This document shows positions 14,794-56,697 of a stretch of DNA of 64,000 nt, piece after piece (the stretch's first letter is position 1; each line of letters begins with the position of its first letter). Below the pieces are notes generated by a model that saw nothing but the letters and a program-made list of their open reading frames with translations, was not told where the DNA came from and did no database searches. The position numbers were made by a program, and so were the translations under genes. The stretch is taken from NCBI RefSeq assembly GCF_054482595.1, contig NZ_CM137008.1; one strand, written 5' to 3'.

Positions 14794-14808
14794 TTAGTAT
14801 AAAAAAGT
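14794..14808. other. attR core (P-O-B' junction, tailspike side)
   Basis: ttagtataaaaaagt = reverse complement of lambda core GCTTTTTTATACTAA with one substitution at the phage-side end; preceded by host cgctcaag, followed by lambda-P-arm-like sequence. Confidence 0.85.
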
Positions 14809-14954
14809 TGAATGTGAAACGGTAAAAACAATTAATATCAACAGCTTATAATTGATTCAGTCTAAAAAATAGACTGCATAATGCTACAAAACACAACATA
14901 TCCAGTCACTATGAATCAACCACTTAGATGGTATTAGTGACCTGTAACAGAGCA

Positions 14955-14996
14955 TTAGCGCAAGGTGATTTTTTTGTCTTCTTGCGCTAATTTTTT
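14955..14996. terminator. lambda sib/tI-like hairpin in residual b-region
   Basis: ttagcgcaag N20 cttgcgctaa followed by tttttt; resembles lambda sib retroregulator region as recalled. Confidence 0.5.
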
Positions 14997-15340
14997 GTCA
15001 ACACACTGGGTTAGCTGAATTTACAACCATGCTCAGTATCTCGATAAGCGCAGAGAAATGATGCAGTGGTGGGCGGATTGGCTTGATGAAAAAGTAGAGT
15101 GAGCGACCTTAATAACTATCGAATAGCACAAAGCCTTGCAGTCCAGTACAAAGCTTTGTGTGCATCAGTTTTGTCTTATCAACCACAGCAAGTCATCGAT
15201 CGATTGAGACTTGGATGATAGACTTCATGTCTTTGATTATTAGCTGACAAAAGAAATGTTAAAGCTATTTGCAAAGTACACCTCGATTGGCGTGCTGAAC
15301 ACACTTATACACTGGGTGCAACGGAATCCCAGGCGCACTA

Positions 15341-17266
15341 TTATTTAGCTTGAACCGTTAATATTTTCCCTCCAGAATATTCTGTAAGATTACTTATTTC
15401 ATTAGCCAAAAGCGCTTTGAACATATTTCGGTCCTGCCCGAAAACAACGCCAGAAAAGAAAGTCCCAAGGTTGCGGTAGCCGCCTACGGTCGGCATACGG
15501 ATAAACAGGTAAGACGTACCCTCGTACGTGCCGGTAAACCAAGCATCATAATCTGTGAGAGATTGGTTATCACAGTGAGCAGCTCTAACTAATTTTGCGC
15601 GGGTAGAGATATTGCTGCCTACTGTATTAAGGTCATACGCACCCGATATAGGATTAAGATCTTCCCCGCTGCGTAATGTATAAATAGTCCCAATGCACCC
15701 TCGTTTCCCATACTGACCACCAACGATACGATAATACGGCCCAGCAGACTGGTCTGGATTCGGCAACGCCATATCCCGACACATAGTGGTACTGAACGTT
15801 GGTATGGTTGCCAGCCCACCAAGATTACCTAATGTAGCGAAAGTTGCAGTTTTCGTGTCGTATGAATTCCTTTGAGGCCACGACGTTTCAAACTTATTGC
15901 TGTACACGATTTCTAACTTAGCACCGTTAGTTAAACGGGCCATCGCGCCATTGAAAGTAGTGGTCGAGCTGGCAATTAGTTGCTTAATACTTACTTTAGC
16001 ATAACCAGATAGGTCAAACATGTAGCTACCTGCAGCCTGCGTTTGATCGTACAGATGTATATTATCTATCTGTAAGTTAGCCCCGGTGCCCTTAATAATC
16101 GTACCGCTGTTCTGACGTGAAGGTTGTTCACAACCTAAAGACGAAATGCTGTACGAGCCTGCGTTAAAAATATACGGAATCCCAGCGCAATCGTCAGCGG
16201 CTAATGGACCAATTTCACAATATGAGCCCGTCAACTCAAAGGCACAGTAGTTTGTTTTAAACGCGTTACATTGGGATACTACGTAGCTTGCCCCCCCATG
16301 TATATGAATACCACCATATATCCCGGTAGCGTCGGAACCTTGGACAACGATTTCGCGGATGGAAACACCAACGAAGGTATTGCCGCCAAAATACATCCCC
16401 CATTTTTGCGCAAGGATAAACAGATCACTAAATTCCTGGTATACGGCGGTATTGGGAGTGTAATACCCGTAACTATCCGTTGTATCGTCCAGGATGCGTA
16501 GTCCACGGACAACATTACCACGTTTACCCTTGTTATAGAAAACAGCGTTAATATCCTGAGTTCCTACCGCCGTTTTGCGAATAATGGATGCACGACCCTC
16601 CCCGACGAATCGGCTACCATTTGGTTGATAGTATTTCTCATTGTAAACATCTTCCAAATCGTAAAGAAGAATAGAGTCCGATATCTCATATTCGCCAGCG
16701 GGCACAAATATAGTTTTTCCCAGTTGCGCGGATACAAGCGATGCTCGATTAAAAGAGAGCGTCCAATCTGGATCTGAATCCAGTTTAAAGTCCAGTACAG
16801 AAATAGTTTCAGAGTTTTTCTGGTGTTGCGTTCGATTTACGGCCCCGTTAAATGGTTGCCGAACAGCTATCTTCGCATCATTAACAATAGTAGGACCATA
16901 GTCTTGCGCCAACTCTGACCTTAGTTGATCAGGGTCATACTTAAGCACATTCGGAAAATAGAACTGCTGTGCACCATATGCATCATAAACAGCCATAGAA
17001 TGGCCTTGCACAGTTACGAACTTGGCAATCTGTCCGTTATATACAGGATACCCGCCAGCGTTAATGATGATTGGCTGTGCAACAGGAACGTGAGAACCGT
17101 CTTCATTCTCTACATAAACCTGAATCTGGTTTTCAGGATTTACCGGGTCAGTGTCAATTTTTCCGATATAAATTTTGCCATTGGCAACCGCTTTAAAAGA
17201 ACGCGCCATAGTGAAGAGTTGCGAAGGCATACTCACTACAACATTGGCATTTATTGAATCTGTCAT
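15341..17266 (-). CDS. P22-type tailspike (641 aa): conserved N-terminal head-binding domain, divergent receptor-binding body
   Basis: N-terminus [62 protein letters not shown]... closely parallels the P22 gp9 head-binding domain (recalled); remainder is beta-helix-like with different sequence. Confidence 0.85.
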
Positions 17267-17465
17267 TTAATTTGCTCCAGATACAAGGAATCGCCGCAGC
17301 ATGGCTACGGTTGATGTTTGTTGCATACCGAAATGGTACGATTGTTGATTTGTACAGTAGGTTTTACGATGCCATTCCACCCATTTGGTGAGGCATTGAT
17401 GATGTACAGCAAATACGATGAGGCGCAGTTCCACTTCGGCATAATGCCATATTTTTTCTTTGCCA

Positions 17466-18194
17466 TTATGCAACATTACTCCCATGAATCAGGTGTTGTA
17501 GTGCTTTAACACCTTCCTCATTGTAGCGGAATGCTTCCACCTGTTTGCTGGAATGCGCAGATTTATCCAGGAAGAACTTCCCGTACTGCTCAGTTTTGAG
17601 GTTGTTTGCGTTAGCAATGCGACCAATCTTGTTGGCCGTTACCCCAAGCTGCTCTGCAACCTCCCCTGCTGAGTAGTAATGCTCTTCTATTGCTGGAAGA
17701 GGTATTGCATTAAAACCAACGATCGGGTTGATTATGCTTGCTGCCGCAGTCTGCTTTGCTTCCGGCGCAAGATTTGGCATCAAATCGAACAGATTGGTAA
17801 CAGCTTCAACCGTCATTTTCAATGTTCGCGCCTGGCGATACTCAACAAGTCCACTAGACGATTTACCGCTTTTAATGTGCGCTTCTTGCATACTTTCAAG
17901 TTGGTCTACAAGTGAGCGGCGAACAGCTTTAGATTCACGAGCAGCCACTCGAAGGGCTTGCTTAATTGACATAACAACTTTTTCAGAAGTTGTCTTGTTT
18001 GATTTTTGAACTACGAAAATTTCGTAGTGCTCACCTTCAAGTTCATCCTTAATGCGTGCAATAAAGTCGTTATTGCGGACTTCTTTTTCCCCGCACTGTC
18101 TACGAGCATGATTGACCATCTCTAACAGGTACTGGCTATCAATGGTTTTATCCGTGACAACGGATCCGATGTTTGCTACATTCTTAAAAGTCAT
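17466..18194 (-). CDS. Putative antirepressor-like/regulatory protein (243 aa)
   Basis: ORF 17466..18245 trimmed to ATG at 18194 with AAGGA RBS; C-terminal region loosely resembles KilA-C/ORF6C-type antirepressor tails; sits between ant and tailspike. Confidence 0.35.
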   Translation of the reverse strand: MTFKNVANIGSVVTDKTIDSQYLLEMVNHARRQCGEKEVRNNDFIARIKDELEGEHYEIFVVQKSNKTTSEKVVMSIKQALRVAARESKAVRRSLVDQLESMQEAHIKSGKSSSGLVEYRQARTLKMTVEAVTNLFDLMPNLAPEAKQTAAASIINPIVGFNAIPLPAIEEHYYSAGEVAEQLGVTANKIGRIANANNLKTEQYGKFFLDKSAHSSKQVEAFRYNEEGVKALQHLIHGSNVA

Positions 18195-18282
18195 TAGGCA
18201 TTCCTTATGTGGTAGTAAGGGTGTGACATAGGCCGCCAGCAGCACACTGGCGGTTTTCTTTTTGCGCCGTCCGGCGCACCAA

Positions 18283-18909
18283 TCAATGAATCCATTCCTC
18301 GCCGCGCAGTTTTGCCAGCATTGGCTGAGCGTTCTTTACGACAAAATTGTTGGTATCAAGATTCTTCATTTCACGAAGAAGTGATTTCTTGGTTTCTTCT
18401 GACATGTAGCGAGTCTCATATGCAATATCGTAAATCCTTCCTGAAAGCTCAGAACCAATTTGCTTCATTCCTGGGTAGATGTGTTTGCACATTTGTTGAC
18501 TCTTCTCCATCCACAATTGTAAGTAGCAGAGATTAACCAGTTCTTCGTCAGTAAACTGTTTTGCAATCGGTGAGCATTCTGCCTGCCGATCCAAAATATC
18601 CAGCACCCAGCGGCGGAACTCTTTGGCTACCTGAGTGCGAGCAAACATCGCGATTAGGTGGGCACCGCGTAGTGAGAAAACACGCACTTTTTTGCGATAA
18701 TTTCCTGAGGTACTCACTTCGAGTACCTGAGTCATTCCGGCGCTAAACTCATCGCTATACTTGTTATAAATCATTGTTACTGCACGACTATTTGCGTATT
18801 TAAGTGCAGATGCAATATTAGATGATGTAAACCAAACACCATGCATATCACGGGTGGGCACCAATTCAACTCCGTGGAAGTTATAATCTGATTTTGCTAC
18901 AATATTCAT
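18283..18909 (-). CDS. ant: Antirepressor with Bro-N domain (about 208 aa; start uncertain)
   Basis: FHGVELVPTRDMHGVWFTSSNIASALKY...FSLRGAHLIAMFARTQVAKEFRRWVLDIL is Bro-N-like; ATG at 18909 has AAGGAA RBS; longer frame to 18993 would overlap arc. Confidence 0.6.
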   Translation of the reverse strand: MNIVAKSDYNFHGVELVPTRDMHGVWFTSSNIASALKYANSRAVTMIYNKYSDEFSAGMTQVLEVSTSGNYRKKVRVFSLRGAHLIAMFARTQVAKEFRRWVLDILDRQAECSPIAKQFTDEELVNLCYLQLWMEKSQQMCKHIYPGMKQIGSELSGRIYDIAYETRYMSEETKKSLLREMKNLDTNNFVVKNAQPMLAKLRGEEWIH

Positions 18910-18982
18910 GTTAGTTTCCTTGCATACGGTTACTGACATAGAGGCCCGGTTTGTGTTCACGCACTGCCGGGCTTCACTATTT

Positions 18983-19156
18983 TTACTGGGCATTAGCTCT
19001 TTCCTCTCTCAGGCTTTTAGCCAGTCGCTGCACAATCGCAGAGTTGATAGAAATTCCATCCATTTCAGCAACACGTCTAATCTCCTCCTTCATTCGCGCT
19101 GGCAAACGAAGCTGGAAACTTTGACTTTTACGACCTGTGTAAAGCACATCTTTCAT
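18983..19156 (-). CDS. arc: Arc-like ribbon-helix-helix repressor (57 aa)
   Basis: MKDVLYTGRKSQSFQLRLPARMKEEIRRVAEMDGISINSAIVQRL resembles P22 Arc (MetJ/Arc RHH fold). Confidence 0.7.
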   Translation of the reverse strand: MKDVLYTGRKSQSFQLRLPARMKEEIRRVAEMDGISINSAIVQRLAKSLREERANAQ

Positions 19157-19183
19157 AAGTAATCCTCCCACAATGATACCAAC

Positions 19184-19199
19184 TTGGTTCTAGAACCAA
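19184..19199. promoter_or_regulatory. immI operator candidate: perfect 16-bp palindrome
   Basis: TTGGTTCTAGAACCAA in the divergent arc-mnt intergenic region. Confidence 0.6.
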
Positions 19200-19267
19200 T
19201 TTAACACCATTTATTTTGATGTCAAGTTGGTGCTATTGTTTAGCGAACATCTTTACGTTGAGGTCAT

Positions 19268-19588
19268 ATGAGCAAGTTCCCTAGTCATGAAATGGATAGG
19301 TTCAATATCAGGCTTCCTGCAGGAATGCGGGATGCTATAGCTGAACGAGCCAAACGTAACGGCAGATCAATGAACTCAGAGATTGTTCAGATACTGGAAG
19401 ATGCCTTGAATGCAGAAAATACACTCGGGGAAATAGCAGATAAAATCAACAGCGTCTCGGTTCCGCTAAATGTTGATGCGCTAGTTCAACTTCAAGCCCA
19501 GGTTATCGCCATGCAAAAAGAAATACAGGAAAAGTTCAGAGAGCAGAACGAAAAGTTGAGAGAACTGCTAAACAAAAAAACCACCTGA
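19268..19588 (+). CDS. mnt: Mnt-like repressor (106 aa)
   Basis: N-terminal RHH motif FNIRLPAGMRDAIAERAKRNGRSMNSEIVQILEDAL and C-terminal coiled coil ending KKTT, as in P22 Mnt (recalled). Confidence 0.75.
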   Translation: MSKFPSHEMDRFNIRLPAGMRDAIAERAKRNGRSMNSEIVQILEDALNAENTLGEIADKINSVSVPLNVDALVQLQAQVIAMQKEIQEKFREQNEKLRELLNKKTT

Positions 19589-19612
19589 CGGTGGGTTAAT
19601 TTTTGCCTTTTT
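19579..19612 (+). terminator. Rho-independent terminator after mnt
   Basis: aaaccacc tgac ggtgggtt followed by T-rich tract. Confidence 0.6.
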
Positions 19613-19686
19613 TGGACCATATTGACTACTCATAAAATGAGATCAATATTTAATCGCCCAATAACGGGTGCATGTTGAGGTATATC

Positions 19687-19866
19687 ATGGCGAAAAAACC
19701 AGGTGAAAACACAGGAAAAAACGGCGGAATATACCAAGAAGTTGGCCCGCGCGGAGGTAAGAAAGACAATTTTGCCACCGTCAAGGACAACGAAAGGCTT
19801 CCGCCAACAACAAAGCCAGGTCATGGCTGGGTATTAGATAAGCGAACTCCAGACAGCAAAAAGTAA
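19687..19866 (+). CDS. Small Gly/Lys-rich protein, YjzC-like (59 aa)
   Basis: ATG at 19687 with GAGG 6 nt upstream; MAKKPGENTGKNGGIYQEVGPRGG...LPPTTKPGHGWVL resembles YjzC-family small proteins (recalled, low certainty). Confidence 0.45.
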   Translation: MAKKPGENTGKNGGIYQEVGPRGGKKDNFATVKDNERLPPTTKPGHGWVLDKRTPDSKK

Positions 19867-19879
19867 TAATCAAGCCGGG

Positions 19880-20245
19880 TCACTCCGGCTTTTTGATATG
19901 TCGCTCGCAGAACTCAACAAGCCTGCTCATTAAGTAGCAGTAAGTCTCGTTGGCTCTTCCTGGTTCAACATCAACGCCGACCCTTGAGCAGATATCGAAT
20001 GCCATGTGAGCGCACTCATGGGCAATAGTAGATAGTTTGCCATTGAACACACCTATCACATGCAAAACACCATTCTCGCTGCTCATTGTATGAGACGCTC
20101 CGTTGGCATCCGAGTCCTGCACGTCCACGCCAAGTTTTTGATGCAGGCGTTGCCATTCTGGAAAGTCTCTGCAAAACACAATTGTACCGCTCTCAAAGAG
20201 CGGAACGAGCATTTTTGGTACGTTTCCAATGTTAACTTTTTTCAT
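19880..20245 (-). CDS. Hypothetical 121-aa protein with HExxH motif (possible minimal zinc metallopeptidase)
   Basis: ATG at 20245 with AGGA RBS; translation contains IAHECAHMAFD (HExxH) and a downstream Glu; no TM segment; stop lies inside hairpin 19871..19893. Confidence 0.5.
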   Translation of the reverse strand: MKKVNIGNVPKMLVPLFESGTIVFCRDFPEWQRLHQKLGVDVQDSDANGASHTMSSENGVLHVIGVFNGKLSTIAHECAHMAFDICSRVGVDVEPGRANETYCYLMSRLVEFCERHIKKPE

Positions 20246-20275
20246 GGTATCCTGCTCAAAACTAAGGAGGTTGGT

Positions 20276-20464
20276 GTGAAGAAAAAATTTGTAAACGTTG
20301 CAAAGTGCGCAATTTTTATATTTTTTATGACCTTTTACGGATTTAGTGCCGGAGAAGGTTTCGATCGTGATGCCAATGCATTCAGTTTCTTTTGTCTGTC
20401 TATAGTGGTCATAATTGTATGGGTGGAATTAAAGCAAACATTGTTTCATGTGCTAGGGAAATAA
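20276..20464 (+). CDS. Small membrane protein (62 aa, GTG start)
   Basis: AAGGAGG 5 nt upstream of GTG at 20276; two hydrophobic helices (AKCAIFIFFMTFYGF, FFCLSIVVIIVWV). Confidence 0.4.
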   Translation: MKKKFVNVAKCAIFIFFMTFYGFSAGEGFDRDANAFSFFCLSIVVIIVWVELKQTLFHVLGK

Positions 20465-20481
20465 CCATCCATGGCATTTAG

Positions 20482-22347
20482 TCACTGCTGTGTTGCCTCA
20501 GTGGCAAGCAGCGGTCTGATGGCATTTGCAGCGTTACTTAATGCTCTTTCATAGGCTGGCGTTCCTGCTTTGGTGTTTGCCAGACGTAAGAGCGCATTCC
20601 TGGCCATAGGGCTTTCATAAACCCTCGACATAAGGCCAATCCCTGTTTCCCCAGCCAATAGCGCGCCTCCGGTTTTTAGGTTACCAATAACCCTTACCAA
20701 AGGCGCGAGTGTCATGCCAGTCTTCGTCACAACATTAGCCTCAGATGCTCTTTTGGTAGCATCGAGAATAGATAACATCCCCTCTATCTCTTTTCCGTTC
20801 TTCCCACCAAATACAGTTTTAAACACCTGACCATTTGCTTGTTTTTGCAGCTTGCCAAGCTCGGTCATCATTTTCTGAGGGCTGTCACCTACCTTGTCAG
20901 CTATTTTGCTGATATATGCCGCCCTTAGCATGTCTTTACCTTTTTGATCGAGTTTCCCGTACAATCGAGCTATATCTGACCCATATTGTCCATACACAAT
21001 GGTATTTACAGCCTCGGGAGTTAAATCTCCTTTGTTTAGAACGTTTTTAAGGCGCGTTTGAGTTGCATGTGTTGCCATTTTTGCATAATCAGCTTTTCCC
21101 GCTCTCCATGCTGAAGCATCTTTTGGGCTAAGTCCTTTCGCTATAGATTTACTAAGGCTATTGGTTAGCGAGTTATAGACCCTGTCGACCATTGTTTGCG
21201 ACATTGATGGCAGAACTGTACGATCGCCTTTTACGTCAATGCGGAACTGAGTTCTCAGCTTATCAAGTAACTCAAAGGCATCATCTCCATTTGTTATCTC
21301 CTGAATGGCATTCTTATAATCATTAAGCGCAGAAATGGTCTGGGTGTCAGAAACACCTTTAAGTTTCCCAAGTTCGTTTACTGCTCCGTCGATAGCTCTT
21401 ATGGCGCCACTTGTATCAACTGGCTTTCCAACCATTCTTCCTGACAGGCTGTTTAGTTTTGACTTGGCTAACGATTTTTCCCTTGCAACGCCTGACTTTA
21501 GACTATCAACGACTACAGATGGATCGTAGTCGCCGTATTTTTCGGTGAAGCGATTAACAAGCTTGGTTCTGGCATCCTGCTGTGCGGCTCTCATTGGTCC
21601 AGTACCAGCTATGACTCCTTCTGAGTAACCCTGCAGTTGATTGCCAAGTTTTGTTTTTGGAGGAACTACATCTGATGTCATAACTGGTACATCTGCCGCA
21701 GCGGCACGCTTGAGCAATTGCTGATCTGCTGGTGATATTTCGCCACGAACAGCAGTAATTCCACGCCCTATTCCCTTTGCTGCTGCGGAAAGAACACCCT
21801 GAGCGGCAAGGTTAACTCCGGCATTTTTAGCTGCATTTTGTGCGAAATCGCCTTTCTGATTTGCGGCCTCTGCCAGTGATCCAATAGCCATGCTTCCTGC
21901 CGTTCCAACTCCTGGAACTAAATACCCGCCAATTGTTTCTCCAGCTTGCGCATAAGGGTCTGTCGGTCGCTCGACAGGGCGATAAACATCATCCAAAACC
22001 TTGGGGCCGCCAAGCCCCTGGCTGATTGCATTAATCAGACTTGCGCCACCCTGCAATACGTCAAATGGTATGTTTACCAGACCGCGACCAGCCTGCTCTG
22101 CAATTTGCCCTGCACTTTGACCACCAGTGAGCCAATCGCCAGCTTGTTGCATCAATGATGGTTCTTCTTTCTGCTGCTGAGGCGGAGGGTATGCTGCATA
22201 AAACTGATCTCTTGCTTCAGCCCATTTGTCACCAGCCTTAGGGGCAACAACCTCATCAAAATATTGCGCTTGAGCCTGTGCTTTCTGTTCTTCAGTTAAC
22301 GCCTGATACTGTGGAGAGGCGATAACATCTTTCCATGCTTTAGCCAT
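20482..22347 (-). CDS. P22 gp16-like ejection (internal virion) protein (621 aa)
   Basis: Size and order after gp20; last gene of the P22-type ejection-protein set. Confidence 0.75.
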   Translation of the reverse strand: MAKAWKDVIASPQYQALTEEQKAQAQAQYFDEVVAPKAGDKWAEARDQFYAAYPPPQQQKEEPSLMQQAGDWLTGGQSAGQIAEQAGRGLVNIPFDVLQGGASLINAISQGLGGPKVLDDVYRPVERPTDPYAQAGETIGGYLVPGVGTAGSMAIGSLAEAANQKGDFAQNAAKNAGVNLAAQGVLSAAAKGIGRGITAVRGEISPADQQLLKRAAAADVPVMTSDVVPPKTKLGNQLQGYSEGVIAGTGPMRAAQQDARTKLVNRFTEKYGDYDPSVVVDSLKSGVAREKSLAKSKLNSLSGRMVGKPVDTSGAIRAIDGAVNELGKLKGVSDTQTISALNDYKNAIQEITNGDDAFELLDKLRTQFRIDVKGDRTVLPSMSQTMVDRVYNSLTNSLSKSIAKGLSPKDASAWRAGKADYAKMATHATQTRLKNVLNKGDLTPEAVNTIVYGQYGSDIARLYGKLDQKGKDMLRAAYISKIADKVGDSPQKMMTELGKLQKQANGQVFKTVFGGKNGKEIEGMLSILDATKRASEANVVTKTGMTLAPLVRVIGNLKTGGALLAGETGIGLMSRVYESPMARNALLRLANTKAGTPAYERALSNAANAIRPLLATEATQQ

Positions 22348-23711: not shown

Positions 23712-23721
23712 TGATTACCCC

Positions 23722-48008: not shown

Positions 48009-48016
48009 GGTGAGAT

Positions 48017-48826: not shown

Positions 48827-48921
48827 GCACTGTGTATTCATTCCAACGAGTGAATACACGGAGCAATGTCGCTCGTAACTAAACAGGAGCCGACTTGTTC
48901 TGATTGTTGGAAATCTTCTTT

Positions 48922-48949
48922 GCCCTCCAGTGTGAGGGCAATTTTTTTT
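48922..48949 (+). terminator. Rho-independent terminator within pL operon (antitermination target)
   Basis: gccctc cagtgt gagggc followed by aattttttttg. Confidence 0.65.
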
Positions 48950-48961
48950 GATGGAGGATAT

Positions 48962-49930
48962 ATGAGTGAAGTAACAGATTTAGTTGTTATTGAAAAAGCA
49001 AATGCAATGACTGTATTTCAGTCTGCCGACCAGATTGAAGAAATTCTCCAAAAGGTTGAACGTGAAGTTATGTCATTTGTGCCTGATATCACAACGGCAA
49101 AGGGCAGAAAGGAGATCGCTTCTCTGGCGTATAAAGTTGCGCAGACGAAAACATATCTCGATGGTCTTGGCAAAGACCTTGTTGCTGAACTGAAGGAAAT
49201 TCCAAAGCTAATTGATGCCAACCGCAAGACAGTGCGCGATCGCCTTGATGAACTGAAAGCCAAGGCGCGCCAGCCTCTTACTGATTATGAGGAAGAACAG
49301 GCGCGGATTAAAGCCGAAGAAGAAGCTAAGGCAGCAGCTGAAGCTCTCGCAAAGCAAATTGAGTCTGACCATGAAATAGCGATTTTGATGGATCGCGAAT
49401 TTGACCGCCAAAGAGAAGAGGCAAGACTCAAAGCGGAGCAGGAAAAGCGAGAGCATGAAGAACGATTAAAAAGAGAAGCTGAAGAGAAAGCCAGAGCTGA
49501 AGCCGAAGCAAAGGCAAAAGCCGAAATTGAAGCAGCAGCAAGACGAGAAGCAGAGGCTAAGGCCGCAGCGGAACGTGCAGAGCGTGAACGCATTGAAGCC
49601 GAGCAACGAGCACAGCGCGAAGCAAAAGAGGCAGCAGAACGAGCTGAAAGAGAAAAGCATGCGGCAATTGAAGCAGAACGCCGTAAAGCACAGGAGGAGG
49701 CAGAACGAATCCGGCGCGAGGCTGAAGCAAAAGAGCAAGCCAGAATAGCAGAAGAAAAAAGAATCAAGGACGAAGAAGAGCGTAGAGCAAAGGATAAAGC
49801 TCACCGGAAAGAAGTAAATAACAAAATACTTGCTGACCTTATCAAGGTTGGCGCATCAGAAGATGTTGCTAAAAATATCATAACAGCCATCGTAAAAGGC
49901 GAAGTATTCGCAACAAAAATAACCTACTAA
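48962..49930 (+). CDS. Hypothetical protein with long Ala/Glu/Lys/Arg coiled coil (TolA-like central region, 322 aa)
   Basis: GGAGG RBS then ATG 48962; about 150 residues of EAKAKAE/AERAERE-type repeats. Confidence 0.55.
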   Translation: MSEVTDLVVIEKANAMTVFQSADQIEEILQKVEREVMSFVPDITTAKGRKEIASLAYKVAQTKTYLDGLGKDLVAELKEIPKLIDANRKTVRDRLDELKAKARQPLTDYEEEQARIKAEEEAKAAAEALAKQIESDHEIAILMDREFDRQREEARLKAEQEKREHEERLKREAEEKARAEAEAKAKAEIEAAARREAEAKAAAERAERERIEAEQRAQREAKEAAERAEREKHAAIEAERRKAQEEAERIRREAEAKEQARIAEEKRIKDEEERRAKDKAHRKEVNNKILADLIKVGASEDVAKNIITAIVKGEVFATKITY

Positions 49931-49954
49931 TAAAACCAACATAAGGAACCACCC

Positions 49955-50086
49955 ATGATTTACGCAATCGCGGGAGGCGCTCGCATGGGTGCCTTCCAAT
50001 TAAATGAATCTTTACTTGAACGAATCACCCGTAAATTACGTGACGGATGGAAAAGAGTTGAGGTCTTATTATGCGCAATGAAATAG
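49955..50086 (+). CDS. cIII: CIII-like protease inhibitor (43 aa)
   Basis: MIYAIAGGARMGAFQLNESLLERITRKLRDGWKR; core LLERITRKLRDGWKR matches lambda CIII as recalled; found by manual translation. Confidence 0.7.
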   Translation: MIYAIAGGARMGAFQLNESLLERITRKLRDGWKRVEVLLCAMK

Positions 50087-50223
50087 CCATTAATCACCAG
50101 ATGCTTCGTGCGGCACAAAACAAAGCAGTAATAGCCAGATTTATTGGTGATTCCAAAATGTGGCTTGAAGCAAATAAAGCGATGAAATCAGCTATCAACC
50201 TTCCGTGGTATCGCAGGAAATGA
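50071..50223 (+). CDS. kil: Kil-like host-killing protein (50 aa)
   Basis: MRNEIAINHQMLRAAQNKAVIARFIGDSKMWLEANKAMKSAI resembles lambda Kil; overlaps cIII end. Confidence 0.5.
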   Translation: MRNEIAINHQMLRAAQNKAVIARFIGDSKMWLEANKAMKSAINLPWYRRK

Positions 50224-50477
50224 GTTTTACAGATAACTGGTCAGACGAAGAATTCATTCGTCAGATGAAAGATTTAATCGGTAACGAAGGAGATATTCAT
50301 GTCACTTGCAACCACAGTGAAGGAGAGCAAGTTACAGAGACGCATGTACACGCAGAAAGCTCTCTGGTATCGCCATAATGGCGACCGCGAAGGAATGCGG
50401 GTATGCCTTAATTTGTCCCGAGTCGAAGTATTAAATCAGCGTTATTTCCTTGGGCCATGTCCATTCTGAGGTGAATT

Positions 50478-51185
50478 ATGGATTTGAATAAATTCGATGA
50501 GCCATTCAGCCCTGAAGATATCGAATGGCGAATACAGCAAAGCGGTAAAACACGCGATGGCAAAGTGTGGGCTATGGTGCTGGCTTATGTCACGAACCGG
50601 GCAATCATGAAACGCCTGGACGATGTTTGCGGCAAAGCAGGATGGCGCAATGAATACCGCGATATTCCCAACAACGGCGGCGTTGAATGCGGCATATCAA
50701 TAAAGATTGATTCCGAATGGGTAACCAAATGGGATGCTGCTGAAAACACGCAGGTAGAAGCCGTCAAAGGTGGTCGTTCCGGTGCAATGAAGCGCGCTGC
50801 CGTTCAGTGGGGAATCGGTAGGTATCTGTATAACCTTGAGGAAGGTTTCGCACAAACATCTCTCGATAAAAAGCAGGGGTGGCACAGGGCAAAACTCAAG
50901 GATGGAACAGGATTTTACTGGCTCCCTCCATCGCTGCCGGGATGGGCAATCCCAGCATCAGATAACAAACCATCACCAGAAAATACCAACCAGAAATCTC
51001 CATCGGTTAACTGCGAACAAATCCTGAAAGACTTCAGCGATTATGCGTCAACAGAAACTGACAAGAAAAAACTCATCGAGCGTTATCAGCGTGACTGGCA
51101 ATTAATGGCTGGCAACGAGGAGGCGCAGGCTAAATGCGTTCAGGTAATGAACATCAGAGTTAACGAGCTAAAACAGGCGGCATAA
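50478..51185 (+). CDS. Rad52-type single-strand annealing protein (Sak-like, 235 aa)
   Basis: DIEWRIQQSGKTRDGKVWAMVLAYVTNRAIMKRLDDVCGKAGWRNEY...AVKGGRSGAMKRAAVQWGIGRYLY, Rad52/Rad22-like. Confidence 0.75.
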   Translation: MDLNKFDEPFSPEDIEWRIQQSGKTRDGKVWAMVLAYVTNRAIMKRLDDVCGKAGWRNEYRDIPNNGGVECGISIKIDSEWVTKWDAAENTQVEAVKGGRSGAMKRAAVQWGIGRYLYNLEEGFAQTSLDKKQGWHRAKLKDGTGFYWLPPSLPGWAIPASDNKPSPENTNQKSPSVNCEQILKDFSDYASTETDKKKLIERYQRDWQLMAGNEEAQAKCVQVMNIRVNELKQAA

Positions 51186-51659
51186 ATGGCAAGTAGAGGC
51201 GTAAATAAGGTGATCATTATTGGTCGCCTTGGGCATGATCCAGAAATCAGATATTCACCATCAGGAACGGCATTTGCAAACCTTACAGTTGCTACGTCAG
51301 AACAATGGCGTGATAAGAAAACTGGAGAGCAAAAGGAGCAGACGGAGTGGCACCGCGTGGTAATGAGCGGGAAACTGGCAGAAATTGCCAGCGAATATCT
51401 GCGAAAAGGCTCTGAGGTTTATCTTGAAGGAAAATTGCGGACAAGAAAATGGCAGGATCAAAGCGGACAGGATAGGTTCACTACCGAAGTCATCGTGGGC
51501 GTTGGTGGAACCATGCAAATGCTTGGTGGCAAGCAAGGAGGCAATGAACAGTCTTCACCTCAGCGAAATAACGGTCAGCAACAAAGACAGCAATCTCAGC
51601 AGCAGGGGAATCACAGCGAACCACCTATGAACTTCGACGATTCGGATATTCCGTTCTAG
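51186..51659 (+). CDS. ssb: Single-stranded DNA-binding protein (157 aa)
   Basis: OB-fold N-terminus [36 protein letters not shown], Gln/Gly-rich linker, acidic tail DDSDIPF. Confidence 0.9.
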
Positions 51660-51668
51660 GAGCTGAAT

Positions 51669-52148
51669 ATGAAAATCTGCTCAAGATGCCATCAACAGAA
51701 GGAAGAAAGGGACTTTCAAATCAGAAGAGCATCCAGAGATGGATTAACTGCCGCTTGCCGGGCTTGCCTGGCTGAATATGACAAAGAGCGCGCGGGATTG
51801 CCACATCGAGTATCAGCAAGGAGAAAATATCAATCATCGGAACGCGGAAGAGAACGGTGTAACGCAGCCAAAAAGCGGTTCATTCAGAGCAACCCATGGA
51901 AAAGAAAAGCCCACATCATCGTGGGTAATTTTTTGCGCGACGGTAAGCTAATCCGACCACCACAATGTGAGTGCTGCGGATCAGAATGTAAACCACAGTC
52001 GCACCACTGCGACTACAGCAAACCAACCGATGTGATGTGGCTCTGCAAGTCATGTCATGTCGAGTGGCACAAACATAACAAACCTATCTACCCAGACGAG
52101 GAACCAGTAACTCTCCCCTTCCCTCGTCACGCTATTCACGCAATTTAA
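51669..52148 (+). CDS. HNH-type endonuclease-like Cys-rich protein (159 aa)
   Basis: CSRCH...CRAC and CECCGSE...HHCDYSKP...CKSCHVEWH zinc-binding HNH-like arrangement. Confidence 0.55.
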   Translation: MKICSRCHQQKEERDFQIRRASRDGLTAACRACLAEYDKERAGLPHRVSARRKYQSSERGRERCNAAKKRFIQSNPWKRKAHIIVGNFLRDGKLIRPPQCECCGSECKPQSHHCDYSKPTDVMWLCKSCHVEWHKHNKPIYPDEEPVTLPFPRHAIHAI

Positions 52149-52156
52149 GGACTTAC

Positions 52157-52705
52157 ATGAATCACTTGATGGTTGACCTTGAAACAATGGGCAACGGGCC
52201 ATACGCGCCAGTTATTTCTATTGGGGCGGTATTCTTTGATCCGAATACCGGAGAAACAGGAGAAGAGTTCTCGGTAAATATCTCGCTTGAATCATCAATG
52301 CGATATCGAGCGCGTCCTGACGCTTCAACGATTTTATGGTGGCTGGAACAGAGTGAAGAAGCCAGAAAATCGCTAACCAGCAACACTCAGGAGCTTTCAA
52401 CGGCTCTTTCATGGTTATCTGAATTCATCATAAAGAACGCTAACCACAAATTCGTTCAGGTTTGGGGGAATGGAGCATCATTTGACTGCGTTATTCTCCG
52501 AAACAGTTATTCGCTGACAGGGCAGCCAGTTCCGTGGCAGTGGTGGAATGACCGCGACGTAAGAACAATCGTCGAACTTGGGAAGGTAATAGGATTCGAC
52601 CCTAAGCGAGATATGCCATTCAAAGGAACTCGCCACAACGCTCTTGATGATGCCATTCACCAAGCCAAATACGTTTCAGCGATCTGGAAAAAGTTAGCTA
52701 AATAA
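52157..52705 (+). CDS. DnaQ-like 3'-5' exonuclease (DEDDh family, 182 aa)
   Basis: Exo I motif MVDLETMG, Exo III motif HNALDDAIHQAKY. Confidence 0.7.
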   Translation: MNHLMVDLETMGNGPYAPVISIGAVFFDPNTGETGEEFSVNISLESSMRYRARPDASTILWWLEQSEEARKSLTSNTQELSTALSWLSEFIIKNANHKFVQVWGNGASFDCVILRNSYSLTGQPVPWQWWNDRDVRTIVELGKVIGFDPKRDMPFKGTRHNALDDAIHQAKYVSAIWKKLAK

Positions 52706-52721
52706 TCAACAGGAGAAAACC

Positions 52722-53018
52722 ATGCCAGCGCCTCTGTATGGTGCGGATGACCCGCGCCGCTGTTCCGGCAATTCCGTATCGGAGGTGCTGGATAAATTCA
52801 GAAAAAACTACGATCGGATAATGTCGCTACCTCAGGAAACGAAAGAGGAAAAGGAATTTCGCCATTGTATATGGCTTGCAGAGAAAGAAGAACGCGAGCG
52901 AATTTACCAGACATCAATCCGACCATTCCGCAAAGCCACATATACCCACTTCCCTGAATATATCGACCCGCGCCTGCGTAATTACCGCTCACGCTATGGC
53001 GCTATCAGTAATGACTGA
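52722..53018 (+). CDS. Hypothetical protein (98 aa)
   Basis: ORF with no recognisable motif. Confidence 0.4.
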
Positions 53019-53189
53019 GGAATTTACCATGAGAGGACTTGCATACAATCCCGGCATTCTTCCGGCAGAAATGATTATTCGCCAACGCGTAAAGCCAATG
53101 CCATCGAGAGAGGGATTACTTAAGCGAAACTCGTTTCCATCAGTGAATCAAAACAAATATCTGAATGCGATGTGGCGGAGTGGGAAGAA

Positions 53190-53576
53190 ATGAAACAAAT
53201 GTCACTAATTGAGATGGATGGTTTTCTGAAAGGTAAATGCATCCCACGAGATTTAAAGGTTAACGAAACAAACGCTGAATATCTGGTGCGTAAATTTGCT
53301 GAAGCGGAGGCCAAGTGCGCGGCGCTGGCAGCGGATAATGCGGCGCTTAAACAGTCGGAGAAGGAATTTAATAACTTCTGTCGTCAGGAGTACTACGGTT
53401 GGGAGGACAACTTCACGGAAACCCCAGCCACCGATGCTTTCCTGGCTGAAGTACGGGCGCAGGGTGTGGAGATGGCTATGGAGCATATGCAGTCGAGCGG
53501 TTCGTTAACATTTGGAGATTGCTACATATCACTTAACGAGTTCGCCGCAGAGCTTCGCAAAGGAGGTAACCAGTGA
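53190..53576 (+). CDS. Hypothetical protein (128 aa; start uncertain)
   Basis: ATG at 53190 overlapping upstream stop; no recognised motif. Confidence 0.4.
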
Positions 53577-53872
53577 GTGTATATCTCATTGATAAACGCC
53601 GACGTGGGCAACAAATACCACCTGTAGGAATTCCGAATCACACATGGTTTTGCGTACTTGATATCGATGGCATGGATAAGTTTGTTGACACTCGTCATTA
53701 CTGCGATACCGCAACAGCTACTCCGGCGAAAGCAAAGAAAATGGCTGCTCTGATAGAAAACTGGACTCCACCTGATGGGTGGTGCAATGGGAATGATCGA
53801 GATTGGCATGAAAAAATGAAGGGCTATATCTGCGATTTCTTACGTAAATGCAACGGCTTCAGGGTGATGTGA
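53573..53872 (+). CDS. Hypothetical protein (99 aa)
   Basis: ORF coupled to flanking genes by overlapping start/stop. Confidence 0.4.
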   Translation: MSVYLIDKRRRGQQIPPVGIPNHTWFCVLDIDGMDKFVDTRHYCDTATATPAKAKKMAALIENWTPPDGWCNGNDRDWHEKMKGYICDFLRKCNGFRVM

Positions 53873-53873
53873 C

Positions 53874-54554
53874 ATGAACAAGATTGACTATCAGGCACTG
53901 CGTGAGGCAGCAGAAAAAGCAACGTGTGGTGCGTGGTCGCTCGAATATGGAGAGGAGAGATTTGATGCTGGTGATGCGCTAATTCATCGTGAAGTTGTTG
54001 GATATCTTCCCATTTGCAGAATTGAAGGAGCGCATCCTGAAAGCGGTTTCGATGAAGATTTCCAAATGGAACAGCAGGCCAATGCTGAATTCATCGCCGC
54101 AGCCAATCCGGCTACCGTCTTGGCGCTGCTTGATGAACTGGAAGCCGCAGAGAAGCGTATCGCTGAATTGGAGTCACTGACTGTACCACAGTTACCGCAG
54201 CAAGCGGTGCCGGATGAAATGCCGGAGCCAGATACCGCGAGAATGTTCTTTACCGATGCAGTTGTGGCAATAGCTAAGGTTCAAGGCTGGAACGCCTGCC
54301 GCGCTGCCATGCTTCATAGTGCCGAACCTGTAAGCCAGGCTTACAAGTTGAACGCGCTGGATGGCAACTCTCCGGTAACTCCGGATGGTTGGGTTATGGT
54401 GCCGAAGGAGTTAACGCCGGAAATGATGAGAGCCGTTCAGATTAGAAGTGAGCTTGGAGGGTATGCCACTTCCAATCTATCTGGTGCATACAATATGTTT
54501 TCTGAGTTCTGGAATGTTGCTGTCTCAGCTGCGCCTAAGGTGGATGATTTATGA
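53874..54554 (+). CDS. Ead/Ea22-like family protein (226 aa)
   Basis: N-terminus MNKIDYQALREAAEKATCGAWSLEY typical of Ead/Ea22-like prophage proteins. Confidence 0.6.
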   Translation: MNKIDYQALREAAEKATCGAWSLEYGEERFDAGDALIHREVVGYLPICRIEGAHPESGFDEDFQMEQQANAEFIAAANPATVLALLDELEAAEKRIAELESLTVPQLPQQAVPDEMPEPDTARMFFTDAVVAIAKVQGWNACRAAMLHSAEPVSQAYKLNALDGNSPVTPDGWVMVPKELTPEMMRAVQIRSELGGYATSNLSGAYNMFSEFWNVAVSAAPKVDDL

Positions 54555-54853
54555 ATCTCTATCGCTGCCCATTCTGTGGTTCCACTGTGCTTAACATCGG
54601 ATACTCATTCAGTATCAGAGGGAAAATGCGCTATGTGTCATGCAAATGTGGTGCCCAAGGACCAGAAAAACGAACTAGATCTGAAGCGATTTCTTCATGG
54701 AATAGTCGAATGAAAGTATGGGTTTATGATCCAGAAACCATATTAAACGCTGAAGAGCGCAGGAGAACGGAAGTCTATATTCATAACCTTAATGAAGATG
54801 GATTTACACCAGTGCTTGTAAAGGCTACTCCGCAGGAGGTTAACCATGGCTAA
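54551..54853 (+). CDS. Lar-family (restriction alleviation-like) zinc-ribbon protein (100 aa)
   Basis: CPFCGS...CKCGAQGP...EAISSWNSR resembles Lar family N-terminal domain. Confidence 0.5.
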   Translation: MNLYRCPFCGSTVLNIGYSFSIRGKMRYVSCKCGAQGPEKRTRSEAISSWNSRMKVWVYDPETILNAEERRRTEVYIHNLNEDGFTPVLVKATPQEVNHG

Positions 54854-54940
54854 CCTGCAACTTGACGTCAAAGGTGAATAACAATCCTCGCATTCGCGGG
54901 GATTTCTTTTATCTGAACTCGCTACGGCGAGTTTTATTTT

Positions 54941-55252
54941 ATGGAGATGATTATGACCTGTTCAACATTCAACCCTCTAACGTTACAGAAATACCAGCCA
55001 GACCCTGAAGATTTATGCTCACTGTGTGGCGGAAATCATGGTAAAGCCGCCATGATCGAATGTAAGGACAAAATCCACATTTGCCTTAATTGCGTTGATG
55101 TCCTCGTTGATATCAAAAATGAGAGAGAAGATAAAAAGCGTAGCGAGGCTGTTAGCGCCTTAGATTCATGGATGCGAGATGGGTATAGTGCCGCGCAAAT
55201 TTATGACTTAGCCATTTCAAAAGGCGAAATACCAGGAGTACGCATCGAATAA
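54941..55252 (+). CDS. Hypothetical Cys-rich protein (103 aa)
   Basis: CSLCGG...C-x-N-C pattern; no recognised family. Confidence 0.4.
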   Translation: MEMIMTCSTFNPLTLQKYQPDPEDLCSLCGGNHGKAAMIECKDKIHICLNCVDVLVDIKNEREDKKRSEAVSALDSWMRDGYSAAQIYDLAISKGEIPGVRIE

Positions 55253-55292: not shown

Positions 55293-55318
55293 AAGCCGCC
55301 TGATGGCGGTTTTTTCTT
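55293..55318 (+). terminator. Rho-independent terminator upstream of xis
   Basis: agccgcc tgat ggcgg followed by ttttttctt. Confidence 0.6.
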
Positions 55319-55342
55319 GCGTGTAATTGCGGAGACTTTGCG

Positions 55343-55561
55343 ATGTACTTGACACTTCAGGAGTGGAACGCACGCCAGCGACGCCCAAGAAGCCTTGAAA
55401 CAGTTCGTCGATGGGTACGCGAGTGCAGGATATTCCCTCCTCCGGTTAAGGATGGAAGAGAGTATCTGTTCCACGAATCAGCGGTAAAGGTTGACTTAAA
55501 TCGACCAGTAACAGGTAGCCTTTTGAAGAGGATCAGAAATGGGAAGAAGGCGAAGTCATGA
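55343..55561 (+). CDS. xis: Excisionase Xis, lambda-type (72 aa)
   Basis: MYLTLQEWNARQRRPRSLETVRRWVRECRIFPPPVKDGREYLFHESAVKVDLNRP matches lambda Xis as recalled. Confidence 0.93.
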   Translation: MYLTLQEWNARQRRPRSLETVRRWVRECRIFPPPVKDGREYLFHESAVKVDLNRPVTGSLLKRIRNGKKAKS

Positions 55562-56609
55562 GCGCCGGGATTTACCCCCTAACCTTTATATAAGAAACAA
55601 TGGATATTACTGCTACAGGGACCCAAGGACGGGTAAAGAGTTTGGATTAGGCAGAGACAGGCGAATCGCAATCACTGAAGCCATACAGGCCAACATTGAG
55701 TTATTTTCAGGACACAAACACAAGCCTCTGACAGCGAGAATCAACAGTGATAATTCCGTTACGTTACATTCATGGCTTGATCGCTACGAAAAAATCCTGG
55801 CCAGCAGAGGAATCAAGCAGAAGACACTCATAAATTACATGAGCAAAATTAAAGCAATACGGGGGGGGCTGCCTGATGCTCCACTTGAAGACATCACCAC
55901 AAAAGAAATTGCGGCAATGCTCAATGGATACATAGACGAGGGCAAGGCGGCGTCAGCCAAGTTAATCAGATCAACACTGAGCGATGCATTCCGAGAGGCA
56001 ATAGCTGAAGGCCATATAACAACAAACCCTGTCGCTGCCACTCGCGCAGCAAAATCAGAGGTAAGGAGATCAAGACTTACGGCTGACGAATACCTGAAAA
56101 TTTATCAAGCAGCAGAATCATCACCATGTTGGCTCAGACTTGCAATGGAACTGGCTGTTGTTACCGGGCAACGAGTTGGTGATTTATGCGAAATGAAGTG
56201 GTCTGATATCGTAGATGGATATCTTTATGTCGAGCAAAGCAAAACAGGCGTAAAAATTGCCATCCCAACAACATTGCATGTTGATGCTCTCGGGATATCA
56301 ATGAAGGAAACACTCGATAAATGCAAAGAGATTCTTGGCGGAGAAACCATAATTGCATCTACTCGTCGTGAACCGCTTTCATCCGGCACAGTATCAAGGT
56401 ATTTTATGCGCGCACGAAAAGCATCAGGTCTTTCCTTCGAAGGGGATCCGCCTACCTTTCACGAGTTGCGCAGTTTGTCTGCAAGACTCTATGAGAAGCA
56501 GATAAGCGATAAGTTTGCTCAACATCTTCTCGGGCATAAGTCGGACACCATGGCATCACAGTATCGTGATGACAGAGGCAGGGAGTGGGACAAAATTGAA
56601 ATCAAATAA
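55539..56609 (+). CDS. int: Integrase Int, lambda-type tyrosine recombinase (356 aa)
   Basis: MGRRRSHERRDLPPNLYIRNNGYYCYRDPRTGKEFGLGRDRRIAITEAIQ... matches lambda Int as recalled; overlaps xis end. Confidence 0.95.
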   Translation: MGRRRSHERRDLPPNLYIRNNGYYCYRDPRTGKEFGLGRDRRIAITEAIQANIELFSGHKHKPLTARINSDNSVTLHSWLDRYEKILASRGIKQKTLINYMSKIKAIRGGLPDAPLEDITTKEIAAMLNGYIDEGKAASAKLIRSTLSDAFREAIAEGHITTNPVAATRAAKSEVRRSRLTADEYLKIYQAAESSPCWLRLAMELAVVTGQRVGDLCEMKWSDIVDGYLYVEQSKTGVKIAIPTTLHVDALGISMKETLDKCKEILGGETIIASTRREPLSSGTVSRYFMRARKASGLSFEGDPPTFHELRSLSARLYEKQISDKFAQHLLGHKSDTMASQYRDDRGREWDKIEIK

Positions 56610-56682
56610 TGATTTTATTTTGACTGATAGTGACCTGTTCGTTGCAACAAATTGATAAGCAATGCTTTTTTATAATGCCAAC

Positions 56683-56697
56683 TTAGTATAAAAAAGC
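56683..56697. other. attL core (B-O-P' junction, int side)
   Basis: ttagtataaaaaagc = reverse complement of GCTTTTTTATACTAA; 56610..56682 matches lambda P' arm as recalled; followed by host aggc... Confidence 0.9.

Follow-up and report, generated by a model that had tools for sequence, protein, structure and literature searches.

An apparently intact P22-like Escherichia coli prophage carrying a lambda-type integration cassette between ybhB and ybhC

Results

Organization of the prophage

The window, a 64,000-nucleotide stretch of contig NZ_CM137008.1 (RefSeq assembly GCF_054482595.1), contains a 41.9-kb prophage (positions 14794-56697) between ybhB and ybhC, the products of which scored 343.8 bits (cut-off 226) and 733 bits (cut-off 436), respectively, against NCBIfam models. 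The prophage is delimited by two copies of the lambda att core GCTTTTTTATACTAA, which occurs exactly twice, once with one mismatch (14794-14808) and once exactly (56683-56697), where about 0.01 chance matches were expected. The features of the prophage are listed in Table 1.

Table 1. Features of the prophage in window coordinates
Feature	Position	Strand	Remarks
attR core (POB')	14794..14808	-	14/15 positions match lambda core
Lambda-type P arm and sib/tI hairpin	14809..15006	-	P1 and P2 arm sites conserved
IntS-type integrase fossil	15019..15112	+	last ~30 codons, ending in QYLDKRREMMQWWADWLDEKVE and a stop; HK620/Sf6/CUS-3/CPS-53 type
Hairpin	15127..15163		common to region downstream of HK620 int and lambda ~27473-27517
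gtrA 5' stub	15256..15318	+	63 bp, 21 codons, MLKLFAKYTSIGVLNTLIHWV; remainder of O-antigen conversion cassette deleted
Tailspike (641 aa)	15341..17266	-	P22 head-binding domain (aa 4-114) and rare receptor-binding domain
immI-type region	17466..19588	mixed	PHROG matches
Antirepressor	17466-18245	-	
Ant (BRO-N type)	18283-18993	-	
Arc-like	18983-19171	-	
Mnt-like	19268-19588	+	
Small genes between immI and gene 16	19672..20464		P22 ORF59-like (+), hkcC-like 121 aa (-), 62-aa membrane ORF (+)
Small ORFs	19880-20245, 20276-20464, 48017-48439		
Ejection proteins gp16 (621 aa), gp20 (454 aa), gp7 (230 aa)	20482..24414	-	
gp14, tail needle gp26, gp10, gp4	24417..27567	-	
Coat gp5, scaffold gp8, portal gp1, large terminase gp2, small terminase gp3	27751..34102	-	
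Lysis cassette Rz/Rz1, R, S	35227..36444	-	lambda type
Q antiterminator	36981..37469	-	Sf6/CUS-3/Huey type; phrog_943
nin region	37466..41526	-	ninH, rusA, HNH, roi, ninF, ninX-like, ninE, NinC-like PAPS reductase, Dam-like methyltransferase, ninB
Replication genes P (DnaB-like helicase) and O	41585..43901	-	98.7-99% to Sf6 and Huey
cII (-), cro (-), cI repressor (+, 245 aa)	44084..45515	mixed	
98-aa membrane-anchored ORF	45557..47188	+	phrog_18389; downstream of cI, split by IS2
IS2 (1,331 bp)	45667..46997	+	imperfect terminal inverted repeats
Early-left operon	47709..55252	+	N, Sf6 gp34-like and gp33-like genes, cIII, kil, erf, ssb, endonuclease, DEDDh exonuclease (52157-52705), abc2, ea genes, Lar-like
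Lambda xis	55343-55561	+	
Lambda int	55539-56609	+	
P' arm and attL core	56610..56697	-	P' arm identical to lambda in alignment; core exact

Integration cassette

The region 55252-56697 showed 98.8% nucleotide identity to lambda 29169-27724, and the Int and Xis products were 98.9% and 98.6% identical in amino acid sequence, respectively, to those of lambda over their full length. At attL the lambda P' arm adjoins int and xis, whereas the P arm at attR, which includes the sib hairpin, is of lambda type. The P1, P2 and P'1-3 arm-type Int sites and the sib site downstream of attP, all features of the lambda recombination module, are present. The P arm and sib (14790-15006) were 86% identical to lambda (27528-27742) and 90.5% identical to phage Huey (PQ850609, Lederbergvirus); the divergence from lambda falls between the conserved arm sites, and the IHF, Xis and Fis sites lie within the diverged stretch. 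The mismatch in the attR core is a G to A change at the P-side edge; it leaves the TTTATAC overlap region unaltered but affects a position of core-type Int binding. Integration and excision would follow the lambda scheme, in which Int is joined by Xis, IHF and Fis in excision, and int may be subject to sib retroregulation.

Virion module

The cluster 3-2-1-8-5-4-10-26-14-7-20-16 is collinear with that of P22, and the tailspike gene 9 lies beyond it. The small and large terminases, portal, scaffold, coat, gp4, gp10, gp26, gp14, gp7, gp20 and gp16 were all full length and 52-100% identical to the P22 proteins (gp3 100%, gp2 92%, coat 73%). Nucleotide identity to P22 was ~79% over the virion genes as a whole, but a 500-bp identity profile rose abruptly to 96-97% in gene 3 and the first part of gene 2. 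The head genes (25344-34503) were 95-96.5% identical to those of IME10 and APC_JM3.2. The siphovirus head and tail genes of the lambda type (Nu1 to J) were absent, as no lambda match was found anywhere in 15007-35415. Because gp3 is identical to that of P22, DNA is predicted to be packaged by a headful mechanism from a P22-type pac site, and the 41.9-kb genome, IS2 included, should still fit a P22-size headful of ~43.4 kb.

Two parts of the original prediction, which was made from the sequence alone, were upheld by these comparisons: the lambda-like character of int, xis, the P' arm, S, R and NinB (97.5-100% identity for the proteins, the P' arm being identical), and the P22 type of the terminase, portal, scaffold, coat, needle, ejection proteins and tailspike. 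The att cores and the flanking genes likewise confirmed that this prophage with a podovirus-type virion module occupies the lambda attB between ybhB and ybhC.

Early, immunity and lysis genes

The early genes follow the lambdoid layout N-cI-cro-cII-O-P-nin-Q-lysis upstream of the late operon, a hallmark of Lederbergvirus. The early, replication, nin and lysis genes formed a patchwork with 95-99% identity to Sf6, HK620, CUS-3, IME10, Huey and an Stx1a phage. The early-left operon was ~98.7% identical to Sf6, and the cII/cro/cI region was 99.5% identical to the Stx1a-converting phage Stx1a_10051. The lysis cassette showed 92.8% nucleotide identity to lambda and 96% to Sf6, and S, R and NinB were 99.1%, 97.5% and 100% identical, respectively, to the lambda proteins. 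However, S/R and nin genes of lambda type are standard among E. coli P22-like phages: those of the prophage were 95-99% identical to their counterparts in Sf6, HK620, CUS-3 and IME10, ordinary P22-like phages of E. coli and Shigella. Sf6, CUS-3 and Huey, which share the Q type of the prophage, have it annotated as 21-like. In tblastn at 1e-3, lambda Q, cI, cro, O and P, and P22 Ant, SieA, Int, Xis, c2, gp18 and gp19, had no match in the prophage. ARAGORN detected zero tRNA genes; the tRNA pair found downstream of Q in Sf6 and E. coli E9 is missing. The cIII product, predicted to be lambda-like, matched P22 (72%) at least as well as it matched lambda (69% over 33 aa).

The immI region keeps the P22 order (mnt-like, arc-like, then antirepressor) as predicted, but it contains two antirepressor genes, neither of which produced a BLAST match to P22 Ant; parts of 17249-18989 were 90-95% identical to phage JEP4. 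The adjacent small-gene region was 97% identical to P22 and HK620. The cI repressor would maintain lysogeny, and the Mnt/Arc/antirepressor region is a putative second control circuit.

IS2 was identified by its TnpA (276 bits, cut-off 229) and TnpB (710 bits, cut-off 597) and is flanked by a 5-bp target duplication, CAAAA, at 45662-45666 and 46998-47002. As the duplication is intact, the insertion appears to be recent.

Tailspike and the tailspike-att junction

The N-terminal domain of the tailspike (aa 4-114) matched PF09008, the P22 head-binding domain (E = 5.6e-65), and the N-domains of the P22 and Sf6 tailspikes in PDB. For the receptor-binding domain, the sole sequence similarity in PDB was a weak one, to the first part of the Sf6 beta-helix. 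Its DNA was found in three of 5,426 complete E. coli genomes, and its best match among 50,697 phage records was a protein of Salmonella phage SKML-39 with 37% identity. This domain is the sole rare part of the prophage. Adsorption is proposed to involve a glycan-cleaving tailspike, and the domain (~aa 130-641) could be a glycan depolymerase with a specificity absent from isolated phages, though the chances of this are slightly less than even; if so, the prophage would determine which hosts are infected among those with a rare type of O antigen or capsule.

Novel cargo had been expected at the Q/nin and tailspike-att junctions. Instead, the gap between tailspike and att is filled by the IntS-type fossil, a hairpin and a truncated gtrA, and Q/nin holds known nin genes, the Dam-like methyltransferase and the NinC-like PAPS reductase. 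In place of new cargo the junctions contain decay products, namely the IntS fossil, the gtrA stub and the IS2 in the small gene downstream of cI. The IntS fossil was 90-97% identical to the 3' ends of int of HK620, CUS-3 and Sf6, base-for-base identical in phage Huey, and annotated by PGAP as a pseudogene at the ybhB-ybhC locus of E. coli strains E9 (NZ_CP104500) and WL164 (NZ_CP128642). The shared hairpin region is annotated in HK620 as a terminator (38289..23). The gtrA stub was 97% identical to yfdG/gtrA in many genomes, and PGAP annotates it in WL164 as 'GtrA family protein, missing C-terminus'. These fossils, on which both the ancestral state and the order of events depend, point to an HK620/Sf6-type ancestor with xis-attP-intS-gtrABC adjoining the tailspike, in which the lambda cassette xis-int-attP-sib would then have displaced this segment, with intS surviving as its final ~30 codons and gtrA as its initial 21. 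The entry of IS2 into the small gene downstream of cI was probably a later event.

Comparison with known phages and prophages

In BLAST against classified phages, where coverage and identity only were compared, the highest single-phage coverage of the prophage was ~54% (IME10, at ~95-98% identity); P22 covered 41% at ~79%, Huey 37.5% and lambda 11% at the DNA level. When each half of the prophage was compared by megablast with 50,697 phage records and 5,426 complete E. coli genomes, no place covered at least 80% of the query. As no phage exceeds ~54% coverage and no complete RefSeq E. coli genome reaches 80% of either half, the prophage is a new mosaic within a known type. The predicted mosaicism therefore survives, since full-length collinearity with one known phage was sought and not found.

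P22 has a gene-for-gene collinear virion module and 98-99% identical ORF59 and ORF80, but differs in int, lysozyme, Q, O/P and immunity, integrates at thrW (PMC2629481), and carries sieA and gtrABC, both of which the prophage lacks. IME10 shares O/P, ninB and early-left genes at 98%; its integrase is IntS-type and that of APC_JM3.2 is of a different kind, both unlike the prophage, and the tailspikes, immI and immunity regions of both phages differ. Lambda shares Int, Xis, the attP arms, sib, S, R, NinB, NinE, NinF and the integration site, whereas its virion, replication, immunity, N and Q genes are missing from the prophage. Huey is similar in lambda int/xis/attP (99.2%), replication genes (99%), lysis genes (96%) and the IntS-fossil junction next to sib, but has a procapsid cluster of CUS-3/Sf6 type rather than P22/IME10 type, an O16 tailspike, a UmuD-like junction gene and a different immunity. 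The isolated Lederbergvirus phage JEP4 carries the lambda int/attP cassette at 98.6%. E9 and WL164 contain P22-like prophages at ybhB-ybhC with the same int fossil, each covering less than 80% of either prophage half in megablast; WL164 shares the gtrA stub and the tailspike (99.7%) but has a different immI region, while E9 carries a gene for an O-antigen polymerase and differs in its tailspike. In addition, the P22-like phage phiHS3 is reported to integrate on the upstream side of ybhC and to be inducible with mitomycin (bioRxiv 10.64898/2026.05.19.726188, 2026 preprint).

Discussion

Within the lambdoid phages, the P22-like phages have been described as a branch that is mosaic and includes several integrase specificities (PMC2629481). 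The combination of a P22-type virion with the lambda integrase and attB is real but known, and thus ordinary: it already occurs in Huey, JEP4, the E9 and WL164 prophages and phiHS3. The idea of a special lambda-P22 hybrid is not supported either, as lambda accounts for 11% of the DNA and the S/R and nin genes are common to ordinary P22-like phages.

We consider it very probable that the prophage is one complete P22-like (Lederbergvirus) temperate genome with lambda-type site-specific integration at attB between ybhB and ybhC. Lambda-identical segments at each end (14790-15006; 55252-56697) and internally (lysis genes and ninB) could also be expected if a lambda-type remnant lay next to a P22-like prophage, but there are only two att cores, every functional module is single-copy, lambda virion genes are absent, the 41.9-kb total corresponds to one P22-size genome, and Huey and JEP4, both isolated as phages, have this int/attP within packaged genomes of 38.6-39.2 kb, which makes two adjacent elements extremely unlikely.

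That the single genome is instead a defective, domesticated prophage no longer able to form particles is improbable. The IS2 insertion, the gtrA and intS pseudogene fragments and a 72-aa ORF (34572-34790) that matches just part of a longer PHROG profile may be read as decay; however, every gene homologous to an essential gene of P22 or lambda has its full length, IS2 lies in an accessory gene with its target duplication intact, and the fossils are common to the viable phage Huey. By its gene content, the P22-like prophage with its lambda integrase cassette therefore appears to be intact. New accessory or defence cargo at the module junctions is very doubtful. About 27% of the prophage had no match of at least 80% identity in eight reference phages, and the tailspike receptor-binding domain is rare, yet the unmatched segments resolved to known items (the tailspike domain, immI genes as in JEP4 and UPF_BP1, gp16, cro/cI of the Stx1a phage, IS2, the DEDDh exonuclease and the NinC-like gene), and all ORFs tested had strong PHROG matches to known phage families. 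PADLOC found nothing specific in ten accessory ORFs, its sole matches being generic PAPS-reductase and DEDDh domain similarities.

The prophage is another case of modular exchange in lambdoid phages, with little significance beyond cataloguing. Its practical value is that the prophage is fully mapped, is probably inducible and combines a rare tailspike with a small terminase identical to that of P22, which could be of interest for host-range engineering or for studies of lateral transduction at the bio/gal region. It also illustrates that the lambda int/attP cassette moves between siphovirus-type and podovirus-type lambdoid phages, here with a fossil of the displaced integrase gene. The fossil was considered as a counter of P22-like prophages at attB and rejected, because it also adjoins nleD/nleH effector-carrying and other non-P22 remnants; the 686 genomes in which it was found thus count an att-cassette variant, not a virion type.

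An E. coli prophage with a lambda-type integration module

Exactly two copies of the 15-bp lambda common core lie in the 64-kb window, both on the minus strand (chance expectation for core matches in the window, about 0.01), and the prophage that they bound measures 41,904 bp with both cores included. The flanking genes ybhB and ybhC both exceed NCBIfam curated cut-offs, and the homologous flank stretches in other genomes are annotated identically in RefSeq. The two cores and these scored genes confirm that the lambda attB between ybhB and ybhC is occupied. The prophage is oriented as a lambda lysogen: attL (BOP′) and int face ybhC and gal, and attR (POB′) and the virion end face bio. The attR and attL cores differ by a single base (ACTTTTTTATACTAA vs GCTTTTTTATACTAA), a G to A change in attR at the P-side edge, within the C core-type Int site and outside the 7-bp overlap region; lambda and the isolated Lederbergvirus Huey have G at this position. 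A Moco (molybdenum cofactor) riboswitch precedes the moa operon in the host flank, as expected for E. coli.

The region 55252-56697 showed 98.8% identity to lambda 29169-27724, and 14790-15006 showed 86% identity to lambda 27742-27528. Int and Xis matched their lambda counterparts over the full length at 98.9% and 98.6% amino acid identity. When attP was reconstructed from both prophage ends and aligned to lambda and Huey, the P′ arm had no differences from that of lambda, and conservation extended to the sib/tI hairpin and to arm-type sequences P1 and P2; the sequence between P2 and the core had diverged from lambda. The int, xis and P′ arm are thus lambda-like, as the original prediction stated.

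Table. Features of the prophage and its flanks (window positions)
Feature	Position	Strand	Remarks
Moco riboswitch	5081-5225	-	upstream of moa operon; 104.5 bits
Left flank, bio operon and ybhB	14227-14703 (ybhB)
Core copy, attR	14794-14808	-	14/15 match to lambda core
Lambda-type P arm and sib	14809-15006		junction
IntS-type integrase gene, last ~30 codons	15019-15112		junction; 90-97% to HK620, CUS-3, Sf6
Hairpin (GCACAAAGC...GCTTTGTGC)	about 15127-15163		junction
gtrA, first 21 codons	15256-15318		junction
Tailspike	15341-17266		641 aa; P22 head-binding domain PF09008 and PDB matches
int-alpA RNA motif (Rfam)	34807-34869	-	42 bits (gathering score 35.8)
S, R, Rz (lysis)	35227-36444		lambda 92.8%; Sf6, CUS-3, IME10 96-97%
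Q	36981-37469		Sf6/CUS-3/Huey type; phages annotated as 21-like
ninH, rusA, HNH, roi, ninF, ninX-like, ninE, NinC-like PAPS reductase, Dam-like methyltransferase, ninB	37466-41526		HK620, CUS-3, IME10 nearest
O and P	41585-43901		Sf6 and Huey 98.7-99%
cro, cI, gene stub behind cI	44380-45667		Stx1a-converting phage 99.5%
IS2	45667-46997		1,331 bp; imperfect terminal repeats, CAAAA target duplication
Early-left operon	47709-55252		Sf6 ~98.7%
Core copy, attL	56683-56697	-	exact match to lambda core
Right flank, ybhC	56744-58027

The P22-type virion module and tailspike

PHROG matches identified genes 16, 20, 7, 14, 26, 10, 4, 5, 8, 1, 2 and 3 as full-length P22 homologues in P22 order (20482-34102, minus strand). 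Protein identities to P22 were 100% for gp3, 92% for gp2, 77% for portal, 85% for scaffold, 73% for coat, 60% for gp4, 92.5% for gp10, 77% for gp26, 90% for gp14, 93% for gp7, 80% for gp20 and 52% for gp16, with about 79% DNA identity overall. Together with PF09008 in the tailspike, these collinear homologues establish the predicted P22 type of the terminase, portal, scaffold, coat, needle, ejection proteins and tailspike. Within 32800-34300, identity to P22 DNA was 96-97% over gene 3 and the beginning of gene 2, up to a break near 32.8 kb inside the large-terminase gene, whereas portal through coat showed 71-80%; this difference implies that Salmonella and E. coli phages have recently exchanged the pac-recognition module. 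The head genes come closest to those of IME10 and APC_JM3.2, two E. coli phages (95-96.5% over 25344-34503).

The tailspike receptor-binding domain (15341-16924) is the sole rare component of the prophage: it had no phage match by megablast, its best protein match in phage records was 37%, and its DNA was present in 3 of 5,426 complete E. coli genomes. The prophage of strain WL164 (NZ_CP128642) carries this DNA with 99.7% identity at the same chromosomal site.

A new combination in a known arrangement

Full-length collinearity with one known phage, which would speak against mosaicism, was looked for and not found. The best single phage, IME10, covered 54% of the prophage, followed by P22 (41%), APC_JM3.2 (40%), Sf6 (40%), Huey (38%), CUS-3 (34%), HK620 (32%) and lambda (11%). 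No phage record or complete RefSeq E. coli genome covered at least 80% of either prophage half, so the mosaic reading stands, and this exact module combination is new within those two collections.

The pairing of a lambda cassette with a P22-type virion is itself already on record and common. The literature places P22-like phages among the lambdoid phages as a branch with mosaic relationships; their early, nin, Q and lysis genes are shared with lambda-like phages, and their integrases have several specificities (PMC2629481). The lambda cassette is carried by the isolated Lederbergviruses Huey (int/xis/attP, 99.2%) and JEP4 (98.6%); P22-like prophages lie between ybhB and ybhC in strains E9 (NZ_CP104500) and WL164, that of E9 with a lambda-size xis and int adjoining ybhC; and, according to a 2026 preprint, the P22-like phiHS3 forms lysogens upstream of ybhC and can be induced (bioRxiv 10.64898/2026.05.19.726188). 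Eight of the 15 best-matching genomes gave an unbroken match from the ybhB flank into P22-type virion genes. The original interpretation was correct in substance, but the arrangement was known and no novel cargo was found at the junctions; the prophage is a new mosaic example of it.

The junction between attR and the tailspike

Where novel cargo had been expected, the gap between attR and the tailspike holds the P arm and sib, an int fossil, a hairpin and a gtrA stub, which is followed directly by the tailspike stop codon. All ORFs tested gave strong PHROG matches, PADLOC returned generic PAPS-reductase and DEDDh similarities and nothing else for the ten accessory ORFs scanned, and no tRNA genes were present. 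At the same locus, E9 and WL164 both have the int fossil marked by PGAP as a pseudogene; in WL164 the gtrA stub is annotated likewise. The hairpin can be aligned both to lambda ~27473-27517 and to the annotated terminator that follows HK620 int; it may be a conserved sequence that marks a boundary for module exchange.

Judged from its sequence, the junction reads as the result of cassette replacement. The starting state would have been an HK620/Sf6/CPS-53-type xis-attP-intS-gtrABC order facing the tailspike, in which a lambda xis-int-attP-sib cassette displaced most of intS and its attP, gtrABC presumably being lost later. The right-hand breakpoint falls in the stretch homologous to both lambda and Sf6, 55252-55323.

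The IntS fossil is identical base for base in Huey and absent from lambda. The composite ybhB-attR-P arm-sib-fossil junction occurs in 686 of the 5,426 complete E. coli genomes, among them non-P22-like prophage remnants, including nleD/nleH effector carriers. The fossil was therefore rejected as a marker of virion type, and it is part of a widely circulating lambda att cassette variant.

Early, lysis and immunity genes

Outside the integration and virion modules, the prophage is an ordinary lambdoid patchwork. Lambda-like S, R, NinB and cIII had been predicted; this held for the lysis genes and for NinB (100% identical to the lambda protein), but the 43-aa cIII is of Sf6 type (69% to lambda vs 72% to P22). 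Lambda Q as query found no match in the prophage. Side by side at 39702-41131 in the nin region lie the Dam-like DNA methyltransferase and the NinC-like protein, which has a PAPS-reductase domain, 56% amino acid identity to lambda NinC and weak similarity to SspD, BrxP and DndC domains. The early-left operon differs from that of Sf6 by a 561-bp insertion (52149-52709) containing the ORF for a 182-aa DEDDh 3′-5′ exonuclease (phrog_255; 52157-52705), flanked by abc2 and the Sf6 gp26-like endonuclease gene. The int-alpA motif, distant from every integrase or alpA gene, is part of the late region: Rz lies on one side of it and the terminase genes on the other, and a 72-aa ORF (34572-34790) follows 17 nt downstream.

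The immI region (17466-19588) follows the P22 layout: the Mnt-like gene is divergent, and after it come an Arc-like gene and antirepressor. Parts of the region are 90-95% identical to JEP4. The predicted P22 type thus applies to the layout, but the region codes for two antirepressors, neither with a BLAST match to P22 Ant.

Near-identity to characterised lambda and P22 components leads us to infer lambda-type integration and excision with sib retroregulation, lysogeny control by cI and immI, pac-initiated headful packaging of P22 specificity, and glycan recognition via the tailspike. As all essential-gene homologues are full length and P22-type headful packaging should accommodate 41.9 kb, the prophage is probably inducible.

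IS2 interrupts a 98-aa membrane-anchored ORF with no assigned function (phrog_18389; 45557-47188); downstream of IS2 are N and the pL operator region. This ORF follows cI directly, where lambda has rexAB, and when intact it could be an exclusion or moron gene.
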